DNA from: Escherichia coli | Lineage (GTDB): Bacteria; Pseudomonadota; Gammaproteobacteria; Enterobacterales; Enterobacteriaceae | Direction: 5' to 3' (one strand) | Assembly (NCBI RefSeq): GCF_003334765.1 | Contig: NZ_QOWT01000037.1 | DNA: 36,551 bases | Part shown: positions 1 through 19,009 of the stretch, piece after piece | How positions within the stretch are numbered: the first letter of the stretch is position 1 | How the letters are laid out: each line of letters begins with the position of its first letter | Notes under the pieces: model-generated | What the model saw: only the letters and a program-made list of their open reading frames with translations | What the model was told of the DNA's origin: nothing | The model's database searches: none | Made by a program: the position numbers and the translations under genes

Positions 1-928
1 TAAGCGTAACCGACAGGTTCTCCTTCATACCATATTAAATTTTTCCAGGTATTGCCGCTGCCTTATTTCGTCCCATAAAGGAAAACTCATCTGGGTTTCT
101 GACAAATACGCGAAACTCACAGCCCCTCAATATCAACCACACGTTGTAAGCCGGTAATACCTGAAAATCAGCCTATTACCGCCCACGCCTCCGGCACCAT
201 TCCCTTTTGATTTCGAATTCTTTGTTGTCGCTATACCGCTTAATGTTCCCGGTCCTCCGGTGCAGATAACACCGGACTTATCGTAGCGCTGGCTAAAAGT
301 TCAGGTGACCAGAAGGAAGCAGGAACACGATCGTAAAGTTTGCGGTCAGTTCCGTCAGTCGGTGGGCAACCGCAGAGTTACGGGCTTCCAGGTCCACAGG
401 AGTGAGTCTATAACGCGTGTGAAAAATCATTTTTTCTGGCGTTGACAGAACACATTACAGGCTGCCACTTACCCGGTGTCCCGCAATACAGCCTTAGTGT
501 TCCGTTATCGGGGATCCGGACGCACCGCAACAACCGGGGAAGTATTTCTGGTTTAGAGCTGTGTCAAGAGGGATTTCTCAGCCCCTCACTCACCGGCTCA
601 GTCTCAGAGCAGGAGCATTAATACGCTCAGTTCATGTCTTATACAGGAATGGGCACAGGGGGAGCTGGCGTGTCACTGCTGATTTTACGCATCAGCGTTC
701 ATGTATTTGCACTCTGATACATGAACGATTCACAGCGCTCTGTTACCGGAGAGATTTACTCTCTTAGCTTACTCTGGCAAATCCTTTACGTTACTCTCTG
801 ATGACTTCTTATATTTATAATACCAATCAGACAGCCTTATCCCATCGGTGATACCGAAGCCGGTCTGCGCGCCGGCTGACCCGTCATCGTTAAACTATCA
901 TTCACCGATTTTCTGTGAGGATTTTATC

Positions 929-2257: not shown

Positions 2258-2455
2258 ATGAAATCATTAACCACGGAAACCGCACTGGATATTCTGATTG
2301 CGTGGCTGCAGGACAATATCGACTGCGAATCGGGAATTATCTTTGACAACAATGAGGATAAAACGGATTCAGCAGCACTGTTGCCCTGTATCGAACAGGC
2401 CAGAGAGGATATCCGTACCCTGCGCCAACTGCAGCTTCAGCACCAGAACCGGTGA
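2258..2455 (+). CDS. small hypothetical prophage-associated protein (65 aa)
   Basis: ATG at 2258 preceded by aggaac; product MKSLTTETALDILIAWLQDNIDCESG...; the longer ORF-track start at 2213 overlaps the upstream gene. Family not assigned. Confidence 0.4.
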   Translation: MKSLTTETALDILIAWLQDNIDCESGIIFDNNEDKTDSAALLPCIEQAREDIRTLRQLQLQHQNR

Positions 2456-2932
2456 GTCTTACTCACCAGACTTCATTCCACTGACGCCAGCCTGAACAGG
2501 GCTGGCATTTTCATTTATCTGCAAAAAGGAATATCGATTATGTCTGATATCACAGCCTACCGTCCGGAAGTGGTCAACGAGAATACGGACGTTATCTGCT
2601 CAACCAGCATCCGCCGCATTCTGGCTGTACGAAAGAGTTCACTGCTGCAAATCGACACAATTATCCGGCATCAAGTGAGCGATATCAGTTAACAGATATA
2701 GATGGAGAAGATGCTTTTATCCGGATTGGTTCTATCGCGATGGTGCGAGTACTACTTGATGCAATGAAGCCTGTCGAGGAAGATGACGAGTAACAGAGCT
2801 CGGTATCTCAATCAGGAGCTGATTGTCCTGGTTCGATGCCGAAAACCAGTGATTTTTCGTGTTGGTATCTGTGTTGGTATAAGATGATATTGTTTATTAT
2901 TAACAATTTTAAATCATGAGGTTAAGTCACAT

Positions 2933-2970
2933 GTTTGAGTCCGGCCTTCGCACCTTCGCACCTTCGCACC
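2933..2970. repeat. tRNA-Leu (leuX) 3'-end-like segment followed by 3 tandem copies of cttcgcac; probable island att remnant
   Basis: tttGAGTCCGGCCTTCGCACC resembles the T-arm/acceptor end of tRNA-Leu(CAA) as I recall it (GGTTCGAGTCCGGCCTTCGGCACCA); the 8-mer cttcgcac repeats at 2946-2953, 2954-2961 and 2962-2969. Confidence 0.5.
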
Positions 2971-3172
2971 ATCGGAACATCAATAGACATCAACGGACGT
3001 TTTTTTATGACTGAAATCCGCGCCACACAAGGCTTTTCGCTATTTTTCGCTCAACCTAAGTCAACCTACATCAACTTACTGATGTGGATACAGCTACAGC
3101 TGCGGCTATACCCCGATTCGATAATGTTTGTACCCACACAAAACCCTTGAAAGGCTACAAGGCTGAAATTGT

Positions 3173-3657
3173 CTAAACCATAGAGATGATTTTTATGATC
3201 CAGTCTTTCTCTTGTTGAGATAGTTCCAGTTTGCTCACTCGTGTTAAGAAGGTATTGATCACCTGAACATCCGAATTGGTGAGCCTATTTAATAGAGCGG
3301 GTGGTATACCTTTACTAACAATCGCTTTGCGGTGACTTTCGTAGTTTTTATTACTCATTGTTGATCCTAAAAAATCATTGTATGGCGGCATTGATCGTTT
3401 CCAGCAACCTTTACTTACTCACTTCGAACTGCATCCTCGTAGACAGTTCCACTACAATAATCGAAAAGGCGCGGATGTCCATTCAGGTATCCCGCTAATA
3501 CGTATAGCAATAACAATGGCTTATGCGGCGCGCGCTGTTCACCCTTGTGCCAGATTTTTATATTGGCAATTGCCTGCTGTAGCGATTTACTGGAAGCTAT
3601 TGATATCCCTGGCAGTGAAATAATTGCGATCATGCTCGCAAATTTTCTGCTGTTCAA
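3173..3657 (-). pseudogene. frameshifted gene of unknown function
   Basis: Two same-strand ORFs (3415..3657 and 3173..3391). The downstream frame is open from 3418, immediately after the upstream stop at 3415-3417, so a single frameshift in the ttacttactc tract would fuse them into a protein of about 160 aa. Confidence 0.35.
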
Positions 3658-3736
3658 GCCTGCAAGTGAAGATATATTACCTTGATCTCATTTGTTTTTT
3701 TGCTGCCTGTTCTGAGAACGTATAAGGACATTCTCC

Positions 3737-6565: not shown

Positions 6566-7282
6566 CTACAGTTTAAATGACACACCAATGCGATAACTGT
6601 TTTCCGATAAATTATCTCTGCCGTTGTAAACACCCTGACGGTCAAGGTAGTCATATTCTATGTATGGCGTAATATCGGGCGTCATATGGTATTGTAGAAC
6701 AAATGCATTTTCCGTCGCCCATTTCTTATGGTTTGCATAGCGATAATCGTTCTGTTTACTGTATAGCGTCGTTTGCCATGCGAAGGTGAAATCACTATTA
6801 ATATGGTAAGTGACATATCCATCCCAACGATGAACGTTATCACGAGACATATCACCAGATAAGTCTTGTTGTCGGTAAGCTTTCCAGTCGTAACGATAGC
6901 GAATGCCAAAATTAAGATCTTTTGTCGCGTCCCAGGACAGTTTTACGTAGGGTCCGTAGCGTGTGCCATTGCTGCTAAAATGCGTTAACATTCCCGGGCG
7001 CACCGTCCATTGATCATCAAGTTTAATCGCGTAATTAACTTCAACCTGAACATCATTGAGTGCGGCATTTTCCTTTTTATTATCATGAATGGTATTCCAG
7101 GTATTACTTTCCATGCTTGCCCACCATCCATTTTGCCATCCCTCACTGACTTTGAGTCGAGTCTCATAGGCGTGGCTTCCACTACGATATCCACCACGTA
7201 CGTCCAGTGTCGCAGCCTGAGAAATTAATGGGGACGAAAAGCACAGTAATAATACGCTAGAAAGTATTTTAGCCTTTTTCAT
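6566..7282 (-). CDS. nanC: N-acetylneuraminic acid outer-membrane channel (KdgM family)
   Basis: ORF 6566..7291 matches NanC/YjhA (MKKAKILSSVLLLCFSSPLISQAATLDVRGGYRSG...); ATG at 7282 chosen, GTG at 7291 is an alternative. Confidence 0.9.
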   Translation of the reverse strand: MKKAKILSSVLLLCFSSPLISQAATLDVRGGYRSGSHAYETRLKVSEGWQNGWWASMESNTWNTIHDNKKENAALNDVQVEVNYAIKLDDQWTVRPGMLTHFSSNGTRYGPYVKLSWDATKDLNFGIRYRYDWKAYRQQDLSGDMSRDNVHRWDGYVTYHINSDFTFAWQTTLYSKQNDYRYANHKKWATENAFVLQYHMTPDITPYIEYDYLDRQGVYNGRDNLSENSYRIGVSFKL

Positions 7283-7707
7283 AAATTTCACTCATTTGTA
7301 GGATACAGAAAGCAATACAAAGCCCGCATAAACAATTAGCATTTATGTTGTGTAATATTTTTTTGCCAGACTTATAGTGTCTTTGGCAACCGGTAGCTGT
7401 ATTTTATATTTTTTGTATAATATCTCCTGTGAAAAATCTCTTTCCACATTATTTAAATAAACAGAGGGCCAGATTAAATACCTGAGTATAAAATCTCTGC
7501 TGATGTTTAATTGATTTGAATTTTCGTAAGCTATATCGCTTACTCAATCCATTTTACCCAGAGTCATAAAATAGAGTGTCTGTTGATCTCATTTTCATAT
7601 TCCTTTCAGACTGAAGTGCGTTTTCATCACCCGATGAGAAAGAACTGAAGTGATGTTTGCCATAGATTACGAGATGCCCAGTCTCATTGACTATCGCGGT
7701 GCACCTT

Positions 7708-7722
7708 TATACCTGTTATACC
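7708..7722. promoter_or_regulatory. NanR operator (GGTATA repeats) with adjacent Dam GATC site
   Basis: tatacctgttatacc is the reverse complement of GGTATAACAGGTATA; GATC follows at 7724-7727. It lies about 420 bp upstream of nanC and about 1 kb upstream of fimB, matching the known NanR site controlling nanC and fimB. Confidence 0.7.
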
Positions 7723-8735
7723 AGATCAAAAATCACGCAATCCATACAACAAAACCAGATTTGCAATTCGTGTCACAAAATATGTCGATCTTTTCCTAAG
7801 AAGCAGATGCCATGTGAAGACAGACGAACACTTGCATTGGTCTTCAAAAACTAAAGGTTTTCTTTTAACAATCTGTTTTGTAAATAATTTATTTAGAATC
7901 TAAACAAAGAAAGCTTTGCAAGCTAACTCAGTGAGCTTGGTGAAAATAAGTGTTTACCCGCCATCAGGCTGAGTATAATTCTCATCATGAAATATGTTTC
8001 TTGGTTTGTGGCTTGTAACTGGTCACTCCTGATGTCGATCTGGAGAGGCTTGTTGATGTTGGTGTTTTCAGGATGATGTTTCACTTAGTTTGTTTGCCGT
8101 ATCGCCCGGCGAATAGCTGTGATTGAGGAAGGTTTAAGTCGTAGTGACCAAAGCCATAGTTACCAACGGATGTAGATGAAAAAGCGTCGCCTGCGTTCCC
8201 CCATATCTCCAGGATAAAAGGGAATGTAACAATCTCATGGCCTAAGCTGACGAACCAGGCAGGAATAATCGCTAGGGATCTAAGAATTAGCATGATAATA
8301 GCCACTAAAAAATTACTGCGTTCCATGAAATAGCCATTTTGTGGCAAATGCAGTTGACTAATAATGTCATATGTGAGACGGCTAGTTGAACGAATATTAA
8401 ATTTTGCTGAATTTTTTATGTTGATTTTACTTGTTACAGAACATATCACATGATATATAGATAAGATTAGTTGCATTAATGATGAGGGTTATTATTCGAT
8501 TCGTATCAGATTTATAAATATATAAAGGTACATAGCATGCAAGAGCATGGCGTTTGTATGGCAAAGTTATTATAAGTAACTATCGCTACTCCATTTAAGT
8601 TCACTCAGAAGAACTGGTCCACTTACGTTAGTTATTAAGCAAACGTTCGCTTTTATAAACATAATCAGGATTAAAATGTTGGATTATTGCTAACCCAGCA
8701 CAGCTAGTGCGCGTCTGTAATTATAAGGGAAAACG

Positions 8736-9338
8736 ATGAAGAATAAGGCTGATAACAAAAAAAGGAACTTCCTGACCCATAGTGAAATCGAATCACTCCT
8801 TAAAGCAGCAAATACCGGGCCTCATGCAGCACGTAATTATTGTCTGACTTTGCTTTGTTTTATTCATGGTTTCCGGGCGAGTGAAATTTGTCGATTGAGG
8901 ATTTCGGATATTGATCTTAAGGCAAAGTGTATCTATATCCATCGATTAAAAAAAGGCTTTTCAACAACGCACCCGCTATTGAACAAAGAAGTTCAGGCTT
9001 TAAAAAACTGGTTGAGTATCCGTACTTCGTACCCGCATGCTGAGAGCGAATGGGTATTTTTATCGCGTAAGGGGAATCCGCTTTCTCGGCAACAGTTTTA
9101 CCATATTATCTCGACTTCCGGTGGTAATGCCGGGTTGTCACTGGAGATTCATCCGCACATGTTACGCCATTCGTGTGGTTTTGCTTTGGCGAATATGGGA
9201 ATAGATACGCGACTTATCCAGGATTATCTTGGGCATCGCAATATTCGTCATACTGTCTGGTATACCGCCAGCAATGCAGGGCGTTTTTACGGCATCTGGG
9301 ATAGGGCCAGAGGACGACAGCGTCACGCTGTTTTATAG
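8736..9338 (+). CDS. fimB: type 1 fimbriae switch recombinase FimB (tyrosine recombinase, ON<->OFF)
   Basis: 200-aa ORF MKNKADNKKRNFLTHSEIESLLKAANTG... with C-terminal RHSCGF...LGHRNIRHTVWYT recombinase motifs. Confidence 0.95.
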   Translation: MKNKADNKKRNFLTHSEIESLLKAANTGPHAARNYCLTLLCFIHGFRASEICRLRISDIDLKAKCIYIHRLKKGFSTTHPLLNKEVQALKNWLSIRTSYPHAESEWVFLSRKGNPLSRQQFYHIISTSGGNAGLSLEIHPHMLRHSCGFALANMGIDTRLIQDYLGHRNIRHTVWYTASNAGRFYGIWDRARGRQRHAVL

Positions 9339-9814
9339 AGATAGTTGAGATACCAGGGATGGTGTTAAAAACTACATTATTCTTACGATATATCAAAAAT
9401 GATTAACCATTTATTAATTGATGTTATTGTAAGTGTGATTCTTAATTATAATAATAAACATTAAGTTAACCATATCCATACAAAATACAATGGTTTATGT
9501 TCTTCAAAATAAATAAACAAAATCATTCATAAATTTACACATCACTTAAATTCATCTGTTTTCACATTTTTTCTTTATTTTTTAAGCAACTGGAAGTTAA
9601 TCCACTGCAATCTATTGTTATATTGAATCAAATCAATGAAAATAGATGTTATCACATCAGTGATATTTTATTTTTGTATGATATTTAATGTAATTGACTG
9701 ATAGCCACATCACTTCGTGTGTGGTTATCTTTTTATCTATTGGGCTAATTTTGACCGATTGAGGTTTCCTATAGGTATTCATTCAAATATATCTCAGTCA
9801 GGAGTACTACTATT

Positions 9815-10411
9815 GTGAGTAAACGTCGTTATCTTACCGGTAAAGAAGTTCAGGCCATGATGCAGGCGGTTTGTTACGGGGCAACGGGAGCCAGAGATTA
9901 TTGTCTTATTCTGTTGGCATATCGGCATGGGATGCGTATTAGTGAACTGCTTGATCTGCATTATCAGGACCTTGACCTTAATGAAGGTCGAATAAATATT
10001 CGCCGACTGAAGAACGGATTTTCTACCGTTCACCCGTTACGTTTTGATGAGCGTGAAGCCGTGGAACGCTGGACCCAGGAACGTGCTAACTGGAAAGGCG
10101 CTGACCGGACCGACGCTATATTTATTTCTCGCCGCGGGAGTCGGCTTTCTCGCCAGCAGGCCTATCGCATTATTCGCGATGCCGGTATTGAAGCTGGAAC
10201 CGTAACGCAGACTCATCCTCATATGTTAAGGCATGCTTGCGGTTATGAACTGGCGGAGCGTGGTGCAGATACCCGTTTAATTCAGGATTATCTCGGGCAT
10301 CGAAATATTCGCCATACTGTGCGTTATACCGCCAGTAATGCTGCTCGTTTTGCCGGATTATGGGAAAGAAATAATCTTATAAACGAAAAATTAAAAAGAG
10401 AAGAGGTTTAA
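9815..10411 (+). CDS. fimE: type 1 fimbriae switch recombinase FimE (ON->OFF biased)
   Basis: 198-aa ORF (V)SKRRYLTGKEVQAMMQAV... with GTG start at 9815; paralogous to FimB. Confidence 0.95.
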   Translation: MSKRRYLTGKEVQAMMQAVCYGATGARDYCLILLAYRHGMRISELLDLHYQDLDLNEGRINIRRLKNGFSTVHPLRFDEREAVERWTQERANWKGADRTDAIFISRRGSRLSRQQAYRIIRDAGIEAGTVTQTHPHMLRHACGYELAERGADTRLIQDYLGHRNIRHTVRYTASNAARFAGLWERNNLINEKLKREEV

Positions 10412-10458
10412 TTTAACTTATTGATAGTAAAGGTAAAAAACAAATAAATACAAGACAA

Positions 10459-10772
10459 TTGGGGCCAAAACTGTCCATATCATAAATAAGTTACGTATTT
10501 TTCTCAAGCATAAAAATATTATAAAACGACAAAAAGCATCTAACTGTTTGATATGTAAATCATTTCTCTTGTAAATTAATTTCACATCACCTCCGCTAAA
10601 TGTAAAGCTAACGTTTCTGTGTCTCGAAGCAACTTCCTCATTCTTCTCTCCAAAAACCACCTCATGCAATATAAAAATCTATAAATAAAGATAACAATAG
10701 AATATAAAGCCAACAAATAAACTGAAAAAGTTTGTGCGCGATGCTTTCCTCTATGAGTCAAAATGGCCCCAA
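10459..10772. promoter_or_regulatory. fimS: fimS invertible phase-variation element (314 bp) flanked by 9-bp inverted repeats; phase-OFF as sequenced
   Basis: TTGGGGCCA at 10459-10467 and its reverse complement TGGCCCCAA at 10764-10772 lie exactly 314 bp apart, between fimE and fimA. Confidence 0.85.
10479..10507 (-). promoter_or_regulatory. fimA sigma-70 promoter inside fimS, oriented toward fimE
   Basis: On the minus strand: -35 TTGAGA (10507-10502), 17-bp spacer, -10 TATGAT (10484-10479), next to the fimE-proximal inverted repeat. No comparable promoter is seen on the plus strand near the fimA-proximal repeat. Confidence 0.6.
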
Positions 10773-17600: not shown

Positions 17601-17634
17601 ATAAACAAAGCGCACTTTACCGACAATCCGAACA

Positions 17635-17662
17635 GAGCCTGCCAATGGCAGGCTCAGGTGCT
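17635..17662. terminator. stem-loop between convergent fimH and gntP (possible terminator)
   Basis: gagcctgcc-aatg-gcaggctc hairpin, followed on the plus strand by aggtgctctttta; the U-tract is weak. Confidence 0.3.
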
Positions 17663-17665
17663 CTT

Positions 17666-19009
17666 TTACGCTACCATGCTAATAATCAGCACAATAATCA
17701 GCCCAACCACGGAGTTGACCAGCTCCAGCAGACCCCAGGTTTTCAACGTGTCTTTTACTGACAGGTCAAAGTAACCTTTGAACAACCAGAATGAGGCATC
17801 GTTAATGTGGGTGAGGGTGTTGGAACCCGCAGCCGTCGCCAGTACTAGCAGCGCCGGATTCACGCCAACCAGCTGACCAGTTGCTGGATCAAGGATTGCT
17901 GCACTGATAATCCCGGCGGCGGTCATCGCTGAAACCACACCCTGACCCGTCGCCAGACGAATCAGTACGGTGATCAGCCATGCCATGATGTAGGGCGAGA
18001 TATTGCCGTGGGACATCAGCATGCCGATGGTGTCGCCGATGCCGGTGTCGATGATGGTCTGCTTCAGCACGCCACCTGCACCGATGATCAGAATCACCAT
18101 TGCAATGCTTTTCACCGCGCTTTCAAAAGCGTTCATTACCCACTGCATATCGTGCCCGCGCGCGGTGCCAAAGAGTACGAATGCAACCACCATCGCAATA
18201 AACATTGCAATCGGCGAGGAACCGATAAAGTTAACCACTTCCCACGCAGGGGTATCTTTTACCAGCCAGATATTGGCGATGGTGGTAGAGATCATAATGA
18301 TCGCCGGGATCAACGGCACCAGAATCGAAACGCCGAAAGAGGGCAGATTATTCATATCTACCGGTTGATCTGCTTTCAGGAATGATGGCGTTGGGCGCTC
18401 AAGATTGCCGAGGAACTTCGGCAGGATCAGACCTGCGCAGATGACACTTGGGATCGTCACCAGTACGCCATAGATATAAACCATCCCCATATCCGCGCCA
18501 TAAGCATTCACCAGCGCCACCGGACCCGGCTGCGGTGGGAACAGTGAATGTGCGGTAGTGGCAGCTGCTACTGCCGGGATCGCCAGTTTCAGGAACGGAA
18601 TTTTAGCTTCGGCGGCAATAACAATAACCAGCGGTGCTAACATGATAAAGGCCACTTCATAGAACATCGCCAGACCGAAAATCAGGCCGATGATAATCAC
18701 CGACAGCTGTACATAACGCAGACCGAGACGTGCCAGCAGCGTATGCGCTATCTGGTGAGCCGCGCCGGAGTCGACCATCAATTTACCGATGACCGCACCG
18801 AACACCACGATGATAGCCAGTTCCCCCAGCGTGTTGCCGAAGCCCGCTTTCATGGTGTGCAGCAGCGACATCAAATCCATGCCCGCCAGCATCCCGACGG
18901 ACAGCGCCGCCACCAACAAGGCCACCATTGAATTGATTTTGAACTTCAAATTCAGTACCAGCATCAGACCAATGCCGAATACCACCCAGAGAATGTTAAG
19001 CACATGCAT
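17666..19009 (-). CDS. gntP: GntP-family permease (gluconate/fructuronate transporter)
   Basis: 447-aa polytopic membrane [38 protein letters not shown]... Confidence 0.95.

Follow-up and report, generated by a model that had tools for sequence, protein, structure and literature searches.

The leuX-associated islands of Escherichia coli include PAI II536 and the KpLE2 element of K-12. Among elements of this type, PAI-leuX islands with Fec and Ag43 are listed for strains S88 and ED1a (PMC7545054), and the 20-bp sequence GAGTCCGGCCTTCGGCACCA is cited as the attachment site of phage P4 (PMC6177240). A related case comes from islands at pheV, where attR has a one-G deletion before CACCA and where such imperfect repeats were suggested to stabilise the islands (PMC11537424, Table 1).

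The window analysed here is a stretch of 36,551 nucleotides of E. coli DNA (RefSeq assembly GCF_003334765.1, contig NZ_QOWT01000037.1), and near its left end lies a feature of this well-known kind, ordinary except for a few small details, at which the RefSeq annotation records nothing. We conclude that it is very probably an attR-type junction of a P4-family island in leuX, set against a relic arm of an older element and with a core that has been expanded by slippage. With other leuX islands it shares insertion at leuX, a direct repeat of the tRNA 3′ end, and a cargo of fec, Ag43 and yee-type toxin-antitoxin genes. The resemblance to phage P4 attP/attR extends to the leuX target, the first 14 nucleotides of the core, ATGTTT to the left of the core, a tandem arm pair 53–54 nt and an IHF-like site 11–12 nt from the core, an inverted copy of the arm repeat at the integrase start, and an associated integrase that is 52% identical to P4 Int. 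It differs from P4 in that the arm repeats are GTGTTGGTAT rather than (T/G)GGGGGCA, the core has one G fewer and an 8-bp expansion, no integrase is adjacent, and in place of an 11.6-kb satellite phage there is a large island with Fec, Ag43 and YeeU-CbtA as cargo. The pheV islands (TTCGATTCCGAGTCCGG-CACCA) likewise have a P4-family integrase and an attR that lacks one G immediately before CACCA, although they occupy another tRNA gene and a tandem expansion is not reported there. We found no published description of the 8-mer expansion, the arm repeats, or the relic proximal arm on the right. The features of the junction, all on the plus strand, are these:

2665..2793, plus strand: C-terminal fragment (pseudogene) of the last gene of the island, encoding an HTH regulator; RefSeq annotation of the identical O26 sequence, transferred from L001 19966–20094.
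2859..2882, plus strand: tandem pair GTGTTGGTATCT / GTGTTGGTATAA, candidate arm-type integrase-binding sites of the distal (P) arm, from the P4 spacing and conservation across genera; the candidate arm-site sequences are GTGTTGGTATCTGTGTTGGTATAA for the pair region and GTACCCACAC for the inverted copy.
2912..2924, plus strand: AATCATGAGGTTA, putative DNA-bending site matching the IHF consensus WATCARNNNNTTR at 8 of 9 specified positions, from the consensus match only.
2937..2950, plus strand: att core of 14 nt (GAGTCCGGCCTTCG), corresponding to the leuX T-loop, T-stem and acceptor 3′ strand, from identity to leuX.
2945..2971, plus strand: three copies of CCTTCGCA and then CCA, a tRNA acceptor-end remnant with one G missing and the 8-bp unit expanded, from Tandem Repeats Finder (TRF).
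2972..3158, plus strand: relic leuX-proximal (P′) arm of an older P4-family element with the integrase gene deleted, from alignment to D9 and HCP6S3_I1; its parts are a decayed leuX terminator hairpin (approximately 2985–3007), TCAACCTAnn repeats (3051–3079) and the inverted arm-like GTACCCACAC (3130–3139).

The core is an exact copy (14/14) of positions 66–79 of the 85-nt leuX gene, tRNA-Leu(CAA), of E. coli O26:H11 strain 11368, and the P4 attP core GAGTCCGGCCTTCGGCACCA opens with the same 14 nt. It occurs once in the window, and the mean number of matches in shuffled sequence is 0.15 even when up to two mismatches are permitted. The O26 leuX gene ends with GGTTCGAGTCCGGCCTTCGGCACCA, and the window has GTTTGAGTCCGGCCTTCG, the expansion, and then CACCAT, which matches leuX except that one G of CTTCGGCACCA is absent; the direct repeat of the target tRNA 3′ end thus consists of the 14/14 nt and CACCA(T), with the one-G deletion and the 8-bp expansion between the two blocks. 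Read from left to right, the window contains cgGTGTTGGTATctGTGTTGGTATaa (2859–2882), 54 nt, GAGTCCGGCCTTCG (2937–2950), caCCTTCGCACCTTCGCAcca (to 2971), and then tcggaacatc. ARAGORN finds no tRNA gene in the window, and a search of positions 2300–3700 against Rfam (E ≤ 10) returned no tRNA match and only one chance-level snoRNA match, so that the tRNA gene is present as a 3′ fragment alone. An earlier, sequence-only reading had recognised a leuX-like tRNA 3′ end remnant at this point and proposed its alignment with leuX as a check, and the exact 14-nt copy and the CACCAT that follows are what that alignment with the O26 gene recovers; the sequence it quoted (tttGAGTCCGGCCTTCGCACC) is indeed present, at 2934–2954, its start having been placed one base too early at 2933. 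A short open reading frame beginning with the ATG at 2931 was considered as a gene and rejected; the conserved ATGTnnGAGTCC is found in P4 attP as well, and its conservation is therefore more likely to reflect the recombination site than a coding function.

To the left of the core the same reading had noted a 10-bp direct repeat, gtgttggtat, without giving it a role, and this is present as two copies of GTGTTGGTAT at 2859–2868 and 2871–2880, with a period of 12 bp. There are three exact 10-mers repeated at a period of 10–15 in the window, compared with none or one in each of 30 composition-preserving shuffles. The pair ends 54 nt before the core, and the pair of 12-bp repeats annotated as 'attP arm sequence repeat' in P4 (NC_001609 4151–4174) ends 53 nt before its core; in both, ATGTTT lies immediately to the left of GAGTCC. 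We scanned one genome per species for tandem GTGTTGGTAT, leaving aside 61 viral matches, and although most matches are unrelated 12-bp tandem repeats in distant taxa, four of the 68 genome matches are in the Enterobacterales and three of these are relevant. Kluyvera georgiana and Entomohabitans teleogrylli both have the pair, 54 nt and the leuX core, in the latter downstream of ORFs with the sizes of RadC, YeeU and CbtA; in an Arsenophonus endosymbiont the pair is 1.6 kb downstream of leuX, in the order leuX, spacer, decayed integrase, HTH gene and pair, the available sequence stopping 35 nt past the pair and the comparison covering the pair, not the core. Because of its P4-like position and its conservation in Kluyvera, Entomohabitans and Arsenophonus, the GTGTTGGTAT pair is most likely an arm-type binding site of the integrase. 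In Arsenophonus the integrase ATG is preceded, at a distance of approximately 15 nt, by an inverted copy of GTGTTGGTAT with one mismatch; D9, HCP6S3 and the window have GTACCCACAC at the homologous position, with two mismatches to inverted GTGTTGGTAT, and in P4 likewise an arm repeat stands inverted at the start of the integrase gene. There are thus repeated sites at a fixed distance from the core and a motif common to both arms, this one inverted copy with its one or two mismatches being the sole link between them, as the TCAACCTAnn repeats of the proximal arm are unlike GTGTTGGTAT. An IHF-like match is found 11–12 nt to the left of the core in P4, the window (12 nt), ATCC 25922, Entomohabitans and Kluyvera, against a background for the IHF consensus of 0.23 per 100 nt on both strands, and its position and consensus match lead us to infer that IHF would bind at 2912–2924.

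In K. georgiana (L077 1984–2090) the core stops after GAGTCCGGCCTTCG and is followed by unrelated sequence (tcttattcc...), pointing to a deletion or to crossover at another position. The Arsenophonus element, from the endosymbiont of Aphis craccivora (NZ_CP038155.1, L055), is a miniature of approximately 1.7 kb with a frameshifted P4-type integrase gene and a gene for an HTH protein of 181 aa. This protein is a full-length homologue of the regulator truncated in the window and occupies the same position in its compact element (ORF 313..858, minus strand); the end of that ORF (...DEDGEDAFIRIGSIAMVR...) matches the window translation.

Many complete E. coli genomes, among them O26:H11 strain 11368, O103 and O145, match a 501-nt segment around the site at 100% identity, and the presence of leuX and an integrase at the other end of the island was tested in genomes identical at the site, neither of the two lying in the window itself. 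In O26, leuX (anticodon CAA) lies approximately 60 kb upstream of the site and is followed directly by the gene for a 420-aa tyrosine integrase of the P4 type, which bears out the proposal that the site marks the distal end of an island integrated at leuX; in NCTC9100, leuX adjoins the gene for a 636-aa integrase. On the 5′ side of the site in O26 are genes for Ag43, antirestriction, JAB/RadC, YeeU-CbtA, DUF5983 and DUF957 proteins, together with fragments of the genes for a DUF4942 protein and the HTH regulator; on the 3′ side are a restriction-endonuclease fragment, an HNH endonuclease gene, nanS, nanM, nanC, fimB, fimE and fimA. A P4-family tyrosine integrase would have inserted an island of the Fec/Ag43/YeeU-CbtA type into the 3′ end of leuX, producing the attR-type junction, and the sequence to the left of the core is the distal arm of that island, with its candidate arm-type integrase sites and IHF-like site laid out as in P4 attP. 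The duplicated leuX 3′ end is dispensable for tRNA function, and this copy has decayed.

The 14-mer of leuX is present three times across the O26 locus: in leuX itself, just beyond the primase gene in a P4-like satellite prophage (with genes for Psu, Ogr/Delta, Icd and primase), and at the window site. The middle copy sits between the satellite prophage and the Fec/Ag43 island. Three copies are arranged in the same way in NCTC9100, where another element adjoins leuX and where the internal copy leads into a Fec/Ag43 island whose left end is that of O26. The leuX locus is thus a stack of at least three elements at one tRNA gene; the order in which they were inserted is what we infer. The internal copies themselves are not alike, as that of O26 is without the G (L002 23039–23057) and that of NCTC9100 keeps GG (L012, approximately 2509), with the same sequence to the right, from which it follows that the G has either been lost more than once or differed between incoming elements. 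Neither O26 nor NCTC9100 has a cognate integrase where the Fec/Ag43 island starts on the left, the internal att copy being followed there only by an AbiJ gene and IS elements, and no intact cognate integrase with a proximal arm of the GTGTTGGTAT type was found in E. coli; the integrase adjacent to leuX in O26 belongs to the P4-like element, which has arm repeats TGGGGGCA. The Fec/Ag43 island is probably now immobile, to judge from its decayed and expanded core and from the lack of a cognate integrase.

The right flank carries information of its own. Positions 2972–3158 align with the spacer between leuX and the integrase gene in D9, the homology stopping 7 nt before the integrase ATG, and also with the leuX-adjacent sequence of HCP6S3_I1; the D9 integrase, a pseudogene, shares 52% identity with P4 Int across 306 residues. 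Searching 5,426 genomes with a chimeric query in which leuX is joined to the window's right flank gave a single end-to-end match with 100% coverage, in HCP6S3_I1, where the first 28 or so nucleotides after CCA are unlike the window; in many other genomes the same query finds leuX, approximately 190 nt of flank-like sequence, and then an integrase gene. Segment 3010–3420 is present in 1,027 of the 5,426 genomes, or about 19% of E. coli. A terminator-like hairpin and a T run open the spacer where it adjoins leuX, in D9 (−13.7 kcal/mol, z = −2.9; L004 6186–6235) and in HCP6S3 (−15.7 kcal/mol, z = −5.7; L003 9186–9235), with compensatory changes between the two, and in the window, 60 kb from leuX, this hairpin has decayed (−4.4 kcal/mol, z = 0.1). 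Since the flank is homologous to a leuX–integrase spacer and the integrase is missing, the site is the junction of two stacked leuX elements. On this reading the relic right arm comes from an older element of the same family whose integrase gene was deleted, and the site is a P-core-P′ junction lying inside the series of elements that accreted at leuX.

Within the relic arm there is a repeat with a 10-bp period at 3051–3079 (TCAACCTAAG TCAACCTACA TCAACTTAC), of which D9 has one unit more at the same place. These TCAACCTAnn-type repeats might bind protein as a second class of site, or might belong to the promoter region of the integrase gene; the notion that they are the GTGTTGGTAT motif in inverted form was set aside, the similarity being too weak to claim. 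In place of the integrase gene stands segment 3163–3420, with a 72-aa ORF on the minus strand (3173–3391), which recurs at other chromosomal sites and on plasmids under the annotation of a hypothetical protein, and which for this reason looks like a small mobile or recombined module.

The tandem array described in the sequence-only reading, three copies of cttcgcac, is found exactly at 2946–2969; taken with CCTTCGCA as the unit, the three copies occupy 2945–2968, and TRF reports a period of 8, 3.8 copies and 95% matches over 2945–2974. We determined classes of copy number with a synthetic one-copy query that carries the window flank, and read example alleles directly. The three-copy allele is present in at least 432 genomes at ≥99% identity, and all 60 of 60 evenly sampled full-length matches span 232 nt. 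There are about 19 genomes with two copies (224 nt), four with five copies (248–249 nt) and one with six (256 nt), and two genomes with a span of 216 nt have two copies and have lost 8 bp out of register between TCG microhomologies. All of these alleles, the out-of-register deletion included, lie on identical flanks, and the array thus behaves as a VNTR, with head-to-tail copies whose number is polymorphic among otherwise identical haplotypes and with three copies predominating. This variation on the same flanks, together with the out-of-register deletion, is a signature of slippage, and replication slippage, not iterated site-specific recombination, best explains the expansion as judged from the alleles. 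The start of the window flank, CCATCGGA, equals the unit CCTTCGCA at six of eight positions, so a G-less end (CCTTCGCA) abutting it would create a quasi-repeat with an 8-bp period, on which slippage would then expand the 8-mer, mostly to three copies; that the CCATCGGA quasi-repeat was the seed is plausible, and it is absent from the flanks that have a single-copy core.

The distal arm and core together are found in 1,615 genomes, and the junction itself in roughly 650. In ATCC 25922, an ST131 strain, 1EC213 and Entomohabitans, which have other right flanks, this arm leads into a G-less core in one copy (CTTCGCACCA), and across E. coli and Entomohabitans the missing G (CTTCG-CACCA) is seen beside four different right flanks. 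The occurrence of the single-copy G-less core on the same arm elsewhere, in B2 E. coli and Entomohabitans, indicates that loss of the G is ancestral for the arm and that the expansion is derived. Phage and plasmid collections yielded no free attP form of the arm; the only phage match is a weak, partial one from Salmonella, and the two matches in the plasmid collection are to records of approximately 1 Mb that are probably chromosomal.

Several other accounts of the junction can be weighed against these observations. That the resemblance to leuX is a matter of chance, or that it marks a degenerate tRNA pseudogene fragment with no tie to integration, might be argued from the silence of ARAGORN and Rfam, and yet this is exceedingly improbable: chance is opposed by the exact 14-mer and CACCA where 0.15 matches are expected even with two mismatches, by the start of the leuX copy exactly at the start of the P4 attP core with the same ATGTTT before both, and by a P4-like arm architecture kept across genera, while a pseudogene is opposed by the presence of the 3′ part of the tRNA alone, as an att site predicts. 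A stronger case can be made for a true terminal attR, in which the island abuts conserved chromosomal backbone. This is the last copy of the leuX core before nanS, nanM, nanC and fimB, the window has no other with up to two mismatches, and one genome (HCP6S3_I1) does join leuX directly to the window flank, thereby supplying the one instance among 5,426 of the empty site that the sequence-only reading had proposed to look for in strains lacking the island. The homology of 2972–3158 to a leuX–integrase spacer up to 7 nt before the integrase ATG nevertheless argues against it, as do the restriction of the flank to 1,027 of the 5,426 genomes, the fragments of restriction and HNH endonuclease genes that come next, and the occurrence of 3163–3420 on plasmids. 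We therefore consider a terminal attR unlikely; the distal flank is not chromosomal backbone, and the earlier supposition that accessory DNA meets the backbone here does not hold.

A further alternative concerns the array, which the integrase itself could have made by aberrant or iterated strand exchange and the filling-in of a staggered 8-bp cut, the unit being the overlap region. Tyrosine recombinases make cuts spaced 6–8 bp apart, the array lies inside the att core, and iteration of whole elements has occurred at the locus. However, conservative site-specific recombination does not duplicate the overlap, two, three, five and six copies occur on one flank haplotype along with a deletion that is out of register between TCG microhomologies, the same arm is single-copy wherever the flank is without the CCATCGGA quasi-repeat, and no cognate integrase is nearby, such that we regard an integrase-made repeat as very unlikely. 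The suggestion that the triplication reflects slipped or iterated recombination at the att core is accordingly divided: iteration is upheld for whole elements, with three att copies in O26 and NCTC9100, and fails for the 8-mer, for which slippage is the preferred account.

The missing G raises the question of where strands are exchanged. If its loss is not simply one old mutation inherited vertically, these P4-family island integrases would exchange them to the right of the missing G, at the very end of the tRNA gene, a conjecture that we consider unlikely. In that case the element would bring an imperfect core of its own and could leave the tRNA 3′ end unrestored every time, which departs from the standard model. 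Weaker still is the idea that the number of 8-bp repeats acts as a phase-variable switch that tunes excision or expression.

The junction leaves the current understanding of tRNA-targeted integration unchanged. It does fix, with base-pair precision, where the Fec/Ag43/YeeU-CbtA island at leuX ends on the right, and the recognition of a stack helps in setting the limits of islands when STEC and other E. coli are annotated; moreover, the arm-repeat motif with its conserved spacing provides a simple signature for the distal ends of this island family in the Enterobacterales. The longer 12-bp tandem arrays GTGTTGGTATTn that the scan for GTGTTGGTAT met in the Burkholderiales (Pandoraea, Burkholderia and Cupriavidus; L040, L060, L018, L020) lie in a G+C-rich and apparently unrelated context, and were judged to be coincidental.

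From position 852 onwards the window derives from a strain that is approximately 98% identical to O26, with an extra 1.3 kb after fimH. This extra segment, at 17618–18952, is absent from O26 and NCTC9100, and a 447-aa ORF lies there on the minus strand (17666–19009). We also note that the region from approximately 7000 to 10750, around nanC, fimB and fimE, has a very low G+C content (30–40%), well below that of the rest of the window.
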